13,028 nucleotides of DNA from a virus (Duplodnaviria; Heunggongvirae; Uroviricota; Caudoviricetes), in IMG/VR virus record IMGVR_UViG_2734482780_000013, positions 1 through 13,028 of that record, one strand, 5' to 3'. Made by a program: the position numbers. Shown piece by piece: positions 9,001 to 12,000 of this stretch. Each line of letters opens with the position of its first letter. Position 1 is the first letter of the stretch.

Positions 9001-12000
9001 GCTGTTTAGAATCTTGCCAATGGCTTGGTTGTCATCACTTTTGGCTATAGTTGTAATATTGTATTATACAGGGCTTCCATCTGATTTTATTCAGAAGTAT
9101 CAGAACTATTTGTATTGGTTTGACGGTGGGTTTACGAATATAAGACCAGATATAAACGGGATGATTAACTCAAGATATGTAACTGCTGGAGTTACATGGA
9201 CTCTTGTGTGGGAGTGGGGGTTTTATTTCATTCTTCCTTTGCTTTACTTATTTAGAGAAAAATCGTTAGAGTTCATCTCAGCCATTACTTTTTTATCCAT
9301 GTATTTTGTACCATCATTTTTCCCAGATGCCAAAGCAAACTTATGGGCGGCTTTTTGTTTTGGTATGTTGGTGAAAGAAATAACATTGCTGGTGAAAATA
9401 ACAAAATTGCAATCAGAAATTTTGTTGGTTGCATCAATATTAAGCATTATTATACTTTCACCAGGCACTCTTAGCACAAAGCTCATATTTGTTTCAGCGA
9501 TAGGTTTCTTTGCTGTATGCTCAGGTGCCGATCTATTTGGTCTATTTAGAACCAAGGGATTTATAAGGCTTGGAGAGGCTAGTTACAGTATATATCTACT
9601 TCAGGGGGTGATTTTTTATGTCGCTTTTAAAGTAATGAAAGAAAACAACCTTCCTATGAGTGGTGGTATTTTTTATCTTCAGCTAACTATTGTCTTTATA
9701 TTTCTTTGTGTTGTGTCATGTTTAACCTTCCATTTTTTTGAAAGGTATTTTATTAACATTGCAGCAAACAAACATAATTAATATGATGGCGCTCAATGCG
9801 CCATCTTTTTATTGTTATCCCTAAACCACCTCCTGGGGAGGTAGTCTTTTGCTTGATTAACTTTAATCCATATATGGTTTATTGTGTATGATAAACTCAC
9901 CAACTAAGGAGGGTCTTATGCACATTAAACGGTGGTTTTTATGTCAGCTCAGCTAACAGATGGGGCTTTAAATCAGTGGCTTAGTATGAGTTCTCTTGCT
10001 GCGGTTATCGTAGGCGTTCCGCCAGAGGTTGCGCTCGGTGCTTTGTCAGGAGCGGTGATTTTTGTTACCTCTGCTGTCGAGTATCCGATCCGCCGCCGGG
10101 TGCTCCTGTCTATTCTCAGCTTTCTTTGCGGCCTTCTCTTTTACAAACCAGCAGCATCGATTCTTATCGGCATAGCCAGCCTGATCCCTACCATCACACA
10201 GGACTCTTTCGAGAAAGGGATCGTCTTTTCTGCAGGAGCATTCGTATCGGCGATTGTCGCTGTACGTATTGGTATATGGCTCTACCATCGTTCAGATAAT
10301 CCACGTGAGTTAATTCCGGGGAGAAAAGACAATGGTAACTCATGAGCTTTTTTTGCTTATTGCCAATGCGATTATTTGTTCGGGAATAGCAATTCGCGTT
10401 GTCACATTCCGGCGTAATGGCTCTCAACACCGAAGATGGGGGGGCTGGCTTGCTTATTTCCTTATTGTTGCTGCGGCCAGTATTCCTGTTCGTGTCGTCT
10501 ATGCAATCTGGTTATGCACGCCAATGGCTGTGGATTTACCTGAGGTCATTATCAACGCTGTTATGCTTGCTGCTGTTATTAAAACACGCGGTAACGTTGT
10601 TCAGATTTTCAAAATATCGAGGTCTAAACATGGAGATTAAACAATTCCAGCGAGCTGCTGGTATCAGCGAGGCGCTGGCCGCACGCTGGTTCTTGCATAT
10701 AACTTCTGCGATGAAAGAGTTTGGTATCAGCAACCCCGAAGATCAGGCAATGTTTATTGCTATGGTCGGGCATGAGTCTGGAGGCTTCACCCGGTTGCAG
10801 GAGAATTTCAACTACAGCGTTACCGGGCTGGCCAACTTCGTTCGTGCTGGGCGTCTCACCCAAGGGCAGGCTAATGCATTGGGACGCCGTGCTGGTGAAC
10901 CACCATTGCCACTTGAGCGACAGCGCGCGATCGCAAATCTGGTGTATAGCAAACGCATGGGGAACAATGCTCCCGGTGATGGTTGGAATTACCGTGGGCG
11001 CGGACTTATCCAGATTACCGGTTTGAATAACTATCGTGACTGCGGAAACGGCCTGAAAGTGGACCTGCTGGAGAATCCTGAGCTGTTGACGCAAGACGAA
11101 TACGCGGCTCGTAGCGCGGCGTGGTTCTTCTCCAGCAAAGGCTGCATGAAGTATCCCGGCGATATTGCACGTGTAACTTTGATTATCAATGGTGGCAGGA
11201 ATGGCATCGACGACCGGCGCACGCGGTACGTCACTGCCAGTAAGGTGCTGGCGGCATGATCTGGGCATTCGTAAAAGCATACCGGAAACAGTTGATTATC
11301 ATGGCGGTGCTTGCTGTTCTGGTCATATCAGGAGTTGTTGCCTGGAATGTACACGGCAGTCGTCAGTACGACGCCGGGTATGCGCAGGCGAAAGAAGACC
11401 GCAAAACCGAAGATGAGAGAGTTCGTCATCACTACGAACAGGAGAAAGCGATCAATGAACGTGAAGCGCAGCAGAGGATCGACCAGGCGCGCAATGATGC
11501 TCTTGATGCTGCCGCTCGCGCTGGCCGGTTGCAGCAACAGCTCGTTGCCATCCGTGAGCAGCTCAGGCAGTATAACGCCATTGTCGGCGCTGGGACGTCA
11601 GCCGCAGACACCGGAGTTTTGCTTGCCGACGTGCTCAGTAAATCTCTCGAGAGAAACAGACAACTGGCAGAGTATGCTGACAGGGCTGTCGAAGCCGGAA
11701 GAGTCTGCGAAAAACAGTACGACACCCTGACCAGATAGCATGGCATTTTTCATGGTACTGATTTTCGGTGACGGTATATAAAACGGTACGGGAAAAATTT
11801 GGTTTTGGAAAAATGTTATCACTCAATTGGTTATGATTGTCGTAAATAATTGAGTGGGAATGATTTTAATCCCTGCACTATGAATGAACAAAACCCTCTG
11901 TTACTACAGAGGGTTTTTTATCTTCAAGAATCATAGGCTTGAAGTTACTAACATCGATTAATTAAACCAGCTGTCCGATTTGTTCTCTTCTGCTTTGCCC

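Follow-up and report, generated by a model that had tools for sequence, protein, structure and literature searches.

The 219-bp gap between the last phage lysis gene and the host gene yfgI in the window, i.e. the whole 13,028-nt stretch of DNA analyzed here (IMG/VR record IMGVR_UViG_2734482780_000013), is probably the attR (P-O-B') junction of a phiV10/epsilon15-like prophage (genus Uetakevirus) that was integrated within the final codons of Escherichia coli guaA by a tyrosine integrase of the P4 family, with the inverted repeat in the gap being a by-product of an IHF-type site placed beside the att core. The boundary, core and target gene are already published and the repeat is part of ordinary prophage-boundary anatomy; the overall outcome is a clean negative, with known att-site anatomy accounting for the repeat. 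The name attR follows the lambda convention and the window holds this half only, the attL end and the prophage's own integrase lying outside it.

The window is a piece of E. coli chromosome with an epsilon15/phiV10-like prophage, whose last gene codes for an Rz-like spanin (11256-11738, + strand; Pfam DUF2514, E = 3.6e-41; annotated as such in phiV10 and epsilon15). The Rz stop marks the start of the non-coding, phage-derived P arm (11739-11848, + strand), which is 81-94% identical to the attP-proximal DNA of phiV10, epsilon15, ZX5, TL-2011b and others and is missing from prophage-free E. coli, whose match begins at 11849. Matches to free phages (phiV10, ZX5, phiv142-3, epsilon15, SPN1S and others) cross the holin, endolysin and Rz genes and all end at 11865-11866, while strains without the prophage, which have guaA and yfgI next to each other, align to the window at up to 100% identity beginning with 11849, guaA stop included. 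The overlap of phage homology (to 11865) and host homology (from 11849) defines the 17-bp att core (O), ATTGAGTGGGAATGATT, at 11849-11865 on the + strand. It is followed by the host B' flank, i.e. the guaA-yfgI intergenic DNA (11866-11957, no strand assigned; 100% identical to prophage-free E. coli, H46), and by yfgI itself (DUF5384; 11958-12497, - strand, from the RefSeq annotation under the matches), which is convergent with guaA. Thus, the initial annotation was right to see a prophage/host boundary here, and the alignment to prophage-free strains that it proposed places the insertion at this junction. The terminator it had noted after the repeat is present at 11890-11917 and is the only one found by a terminator scan, but it lies in the host B' flank and is the guaA-yfgI terminator rather than phage DNA. 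Junctions of this kind are carried by about 7-10% of complete E. coli genomes (360 and 548 of 5426).

The core comprises the last four guaA codons and the stop (Ile-Glu-Trp-Glu-TGA) plus two further bases, and so duplicates the guaA 3' end. It is identical to the attP/attB core of vB_EcoP_ZX5, which was confirmed by junction PCR and Sanger sequencing (PMC9782041), and the same core had earlier been shown as the attP of phiV10 and epsilon15, according to that report (PMC9782041); insertion in guaA has also been reported for TL-2011b (PMC3293862). The database record of the latter (L173, NC_019445.1) has a peculiarity of its own: over 41268-44784 the "phage genome" extends about 3.5 kb beyond attR into host DNA, with the host genes yfgI, yfgH (labelled as a DNA methyltransferase) and yfgG annotated as phage genes. 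Where the host has a differing guaA end (GGGAATAA or GGGAGTAA), comparison of attP, attL and attR finds that at positions 12 and 14 of the core attR keeps the alleles of the host and attL those of the phage. This distribution would confine strand exchange to the initial 11 core bases, ATTGAGTGGGA (11849-11859), a region overlapping the right arm of the repeat. Elements targeting the 3' ends of genes (tRNA and tmRNA genes, or guaA in the case of islands such as GIsul2) bring a copy of that end which keeps the gene intact, and their identity block spans from the crossover to the gene end, a putative parallel to the window prophage. GIsul2 and similar islands have other integrases and other core sequences.

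The counterpart of this junction was examined in strain AST205, since in the best-matching genome, that of strain 214-4, the prophage end is broken by IS66 insertions. In AST205 the core occurs exactly twice (1540 and 15661 of L175) as a direct repeat around a similarly organized prophage, with the order guaA-int-early genes-tail fibre-lysis genes-yfgI; these are direct-repeat att sequences of the kind that the initial annotation had suggested looking for. Window base 1 aligns in AST205 just past the int stop codon, and the DUF1382 gene that comes next after int corresponds to window positions 195-4 (- strand). The earlier remark that neither an integrase nor a tRNA is visible agrees with our searches, which recovered no integrase homologue and no tRNA in the whole window, and a tRNA-linked att site is thereby discarded; the absence of the integrase holds for the window but not for the system, as in an AST205-like organization the gene sits immediately left of the window start. 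In phiV10 the homology end point is followed by a terminator and then by the P4-family integrase gene (cd00801).

Two side observations concern related sequences. The phiV10 P' arm has a terminator (L001:5049-5081) whose stem, AACCCTCTGT...ACAGAGGGTTTTT, is almost the same as that of the host terminator between guaA and yfgI at 11890-11917, and which looks like captured host sequence; guaA would therefore still end at an equivalent, phage-supplied terminator after insertion. In an IMG/VR contig (L110, at about position 4143), the P arm up to ...CAGTCAATTGG continues without a break into a part of the guaA coding sequence that precedes the core (CGGCAAGCCGCC...ACG); this joint might stem from aberrant or secondary recombination, or from a chimeric assembly.

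The repeat itself reads as described at the outset: a left arm CACTCAATT (11820-11828, + strand) and a right arm AATTGAGTG (11848-11856, + strand), perfectly complementary over 9 bp and separated by a 19-bp spacer (11829-11847), in the local sequence ...tatCACTCAATTggttatgattgtcgtaaatAATTGAGTGggaatgatt.... The right arm lies 8/9 within the core, as 11849-11856 are the first 8 bp of the latter and encode guaA codons Ile-Glu-Trp. A repeat search extends this to a dyad with 28-nt arms (11809-11836 and 11840-11867; 71% complementary, with 3 nt between), which is the longest inverted repeat in the window. The RNA fold of the extended stem has a predicted energy of -17.8 kcal/mol (z = -4.5), equaled by 0 of 200 shuffles. 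On its own, the 9-mer repeat is weak evidence and exceeds chance only marginally: when the 219-bp region is shuffled with its dinucleotides preserved, 3.5% of the shuffles contain a perfect 9-bp inverted repeat spaced by 3-30 bp, and about 1.8 such pairs are expected per 13-kb window. The absence of a convincing ORF in the roughly 220 bp was also borne out, the only two frames of at least 40 aa between the Rz stop and the yfgI stop (11958) being on the minus strand (11598-11822 and 11635-11826) and mostly antisense to Rz.

Upstream of the repeat, the P arm shows two putative arm-type integrase sites on the + strand. The first is GGTGACGGTAT (11767-11777), in which GACGGTAT (11770-11777) is invariant in 34 representative P arms; the second is AAACGGTAC (11781-11789), with ACGGTAC at 11783-11789, the invariant ACGGTA of which is a direct repeat 12 bp downstream of the ACGGTA of the first. 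The diverged elements L058 and L061 have two full copies of GTGACGGTAT at these sites, a sequence annotated in silico as an integrase binding site by the depositors of the epsilon15 record, and the P' arm has one direct GTGACGGTAT copy and an inverted TACCGTC. The representatives were chosen at less than 93% identity, and four of them are otherwise unalignable to the P arm of the window. Only three blocks are conserved across all 34: (i) GACGGTAT...ACGGTA (11770-11777 and 11783-11788), (ii) TCAAT-N3-TTA, within 11823-11833, and (iii) TAAATA and the core, as part of a highly conserved GTAAATA block that adjoins the latter. Between the arm-type sites and block (ii) there is additionally a direct repeat of GGAAAAAT (11791-11798 and 11807-11814, 16 bp apart), whose A-tracts are moderately conserved among relatives; these copies could be intrinsic bends or excisionase sites.

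Block (ii) belongs to a predicted IHF-type site, ACTCAATTGGTTA (11821-11833, + strand), within which most of the left arm of the repeat falls. IHF is a host DNA-bending protein, and the site shows the WATCAR-N4-TTR pattern of the IHF consensus, agreeing with WATCARNNNNTTR at 12/13 positions. As an assignment from a single sequence this is statistically weightless and was set aside, since WATCARNNNNTTR is matched at no more than one mismatch 31 times in the window against 28 expected and the match at 11821-11833 is by itself at chance level. The case for binding by IHF comes instead from conservation across lineages and from the in-silico IHF features at the same positions in the epsilon15 GenBank record: in every P-arm lineage, over about 100 distinct related arms, TCAA-N4-TTR keeps a fixed register (-28 to -16 relative to the core), while N4 varies (TTGG, TAAG, TATA, TCAA, CATG, TTAT), and the consensus is perfect in L058, L061, L068, L104, L137 and L144. 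A fixed TCAA-N4-TTR with a varying N4 is the pattern of an IHF consensus and not that of an inverted repeat. The H' site of lambda, read from NC_001416 as TATCAATTTGTTG with an A-tract upstream, closely resembles it.

Two independent searches supplied related junctions, one keyed on the core and the other on the distal arm motif GGTGACGGTATATAAAACGG, which is unbiased for either arm of the repeat. Of 100 distinct P arms compared, the left arm is CACTCAATT, complementary to the right arm at 9/9, in just 38; in a further 46 it is CAGTCAATT (8/9, with a central G.G mismatch), in three it is of the epsilon15 type, AATTCAATA (6/9), and the remaining 13 have other variants (2-8/9). Three lineages possess a variant core, ATCGAGTG (ATCGAG), with the left arms AAATCAATT, ATATCAGCA and ATATCAGTT; in these ATCGAG-core lineages no compensating left-arm change is present and the complementarity is 2-6/9. 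Complementarity thus shows no sign of selection in this set, and as judged from these comparisons the perfect 9/9 repeat is specific to a lineage and the repeat as a unit appears neither conserved nor selected. This speaks against the earlier suggestion that the repeat might be a binding site for a recombinase or a regulator. An operator or regulator half-site reused elsewhere was rejected, as CACTCAATT occurs at chance level, four times in the window at no more than one mismatch against 4.6 expected, with none near the repressor region. The further suggestion of an att-site remnant or core-type sequence survives for the right arm, with 8/9 in the published core, but not for the two arms as the C/C' pair of a tyrosine recombinase. 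Such core-type sites are inverted and flank an overlap of 6-8 bp identical in attP and attB; here, where attR has the spacer, attB reads GGCAAGCCGCCAGCTACC, guaA coding sequence, so that the 19-bp spacer (3 bp for the extended arms) is phage-only and, having no counterpart in attB, cannot be an overlap region between C and C'.

In the by-product reading that we favor, the repeat owes its existence to TCAAT in the IHF-type site, which is reverse-complementary to ATTGA, with which the core opens. The core sequence would be fixed by guaA coding and the need for identity of attP and attB, and three additional flanking bases would match by happenstance in the E. coli phiV10 sub-lineage. From left to right the order is two arm-type sites, an A/T-tract spacer, the IHF-type site, GTAAATA, the core and unaltered host DNA with the guaA/yfgI terminator. 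By analogy with a lambda-type intasome, the N-domains of the integrase would sit on the two arm repeats and IHF would bend the P arm at 11821-11833, a bend thanks to which the catalytic domains could reach the core about 80 bp from the arm sites, with strand exchange taking place in the 17-bp core (11849-11865). The same P-arm DNA would serve integration as attP and, together with attL, excision as attR. If so, two motifs under separate constraints are enough to give a perfect short inverted repeat beside an att core, and the P-arm features mapped by this comparison, namely two arm-type sites, an IHF-type site, GTAAATA and the core, could guide the engineering of attP for guaA-targeted integration vectors.

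The closest known systems are the att regions of phiV10, epsilon15 and vB_EcoP_ZX5, which share with the window the identical core ATTGAGTGGGAATGATT, the same neighbors (an Rz-containing lysis module towards the phage and yfgI towards the host), the GTGACGGTAT arm repeats and a P arm 84-94% identical. Unlike the window, epsilon15 has no perfect repeat, its left arm being AATTCAATA, and unlike all three, the prophage of the window is internally deleted and represented by its attR half. The attP of lambda has arm-type P sites, the IHF sites H1, H2 and H', and a C-O-C' core, and the window follows that layout of arm-type repeats, bend site and core. Its IHF-like site parallels H' in the sequence TCAATTnGTTR, the upstream A-tract and a comparable distance (about 30 bp) to the crossover, but has the opposite orientation relative to the core. 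The window further differs from lambda in that the integrase of its system is of the P4 subfamily (cd00801, from phiV10), that insertion is into a protein-coding gene, at its end, which the phage core rebuilds, and that the sites here are predicted from sequence.

An alternative that we regard as unlikely is that the dyad is itself a functional DNA element, consisting either of two inverted IHF-type sites or of a symmetric site, overlapping the core, through which a dimer of integrase or excisionase governs access to the latter. The top-strand site ACTCAATTGGTTA does have an IHF-like half-site on the bottom strand as its partner, ACTCAATTATTTA (11843-11855), both match the IHF consensus at 12/13, two IHF sites are placed at these positions by the epsilon15 annotators, and the extended palindrome leads all others in the window in length. 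Yet the diverged elements L058, L061, L130 and L144 have not retained the bottom-strand site, and in L137 the dyad is lost while the top-strand site stays perfect. The central mismatch in about half of the relatives and the 6/9 pairing in epsilon15, a working phage, also speak against a requirement for symmetry. The strong conservation of the core-adjoining GTAAATA counts in favor of this alternative. The right half of the dyad is constrained anyway by guaA coding and core identity, and its conservation is therefore uninformative on symmetry.

It is less probable still that the repeat acts at the RNA level, as a hairpin which lies in the 3' UTR of the late/lysis transcript just upstream of the terminator and which stabilizes the mRNA or is cut by RNase III. 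The region is probably transcribed, since no terminator precedes 11890 after the Rz stop, and beyond the predicted fold energy the inner stem pairs 30-38 and 31-37 show some G-C/G-U alternation. However, an alignment of the extended hairpin in 78 sequences with phiV10/epsilon15-like P arms has no covariation beyond shuffles (score 0.088 versus 0.091 shuffled), its paired cells are as frequent as in shuffled controls (92% versus 92.4%), and the pairs 18-50 and 32-36 are broken in 48 and 52 of the 78 respectively. The fold is missing in the ATCGAG-core lineages, and no hairpin is predicted to form in epsilon15, L130, L137 or L144. A conserved hairpin, a known RNA family and a structured RNA or intrinsic terminator were all rejected in this connection: no Rfam family matches at its gathering score (the best, at E = 0.07, falls below it), no U-run follows the stem, and the terminator scan returned the host element only. 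Like the second, inverted IHF-like site, the RNA structure of the initial idea is not borne out by conservation in the more distant relatives.

A broader proposition, which we find comparably improbable, treats the imperfect palindrome of about 59 bp (11809-11867), bend site and core together, as the selected unit in E. coli Uetakeviruses, serving either as a late-mRNA 3' hairpin or as a double, symmetric IHF/excisionase site by which the core is masked. Counting against the by-product reading, the extended dyad (28-nt arms at 71%, RNA z = -4.5, 92% of cells paired) exceeds the expectation for two unrelated adjacent sites, and as two conserved triplets, TTA in the left site and TAA in GTAAATA, pair with each other, symmetry may to some degree be selected. 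Were the palindrome selected, the free (attP) or integrated (attR) state of the phage would determine recombination or the expression of the lysis genes. Finally, pure coincidence with a functionless left arm, to which the number of 9-bp repeats expected per window and the chance-level frequency of the half-site would lend some credit, is very improbable, as TCAAT..TTA stays in register across P arms that otherwise share only the arm sites and the core.

As to the remainder of the prophage, it has suffered an internal deletion: a DnaT-like replication gene is cut to its first 41 codons (5978-6100; 5978-6124 in the window) and abuts the start of the tail-fibre gene (6069-8573, with homology from 6102), and it lacks the modules for replication, terminase, capsid and tail, which take up about 25 kb in phiV10. 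The remnant in AST205 is similar but has another deletion endpoint, and thus the loss appears to have occurred more than once, with the tail-fibre, acyltransferase and lysis genes being kept. An AlpA-family gene, the presumed excisionase, lies between PerC and RecT in phiV10 and AST205; a tblastn search for it in the window (1939-2355) gave no homologue, as did that for the integrase, and this remnant prophage may be unable to excise despite its intact attR. In the early region, between the MT-A70 methyltransferase and PerC genes, the window has a gene with a DndB/DGQHR domain (836-1939, - strand; Pfam PF14072, E = 2e-46) where phiV10 and AST205 have none, and which may be DNA-modification or defence cargo. 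The tail-fibre/spike protein encoded at 6069-8573 (834 aa, no Pfam match) resembles the AST205 tail fibre only over its first ~166 residues (66% identity), which suggests that its receptor-binding part has been swapped, beside the gene for an O-antigen acyltransferase (8645-9781).
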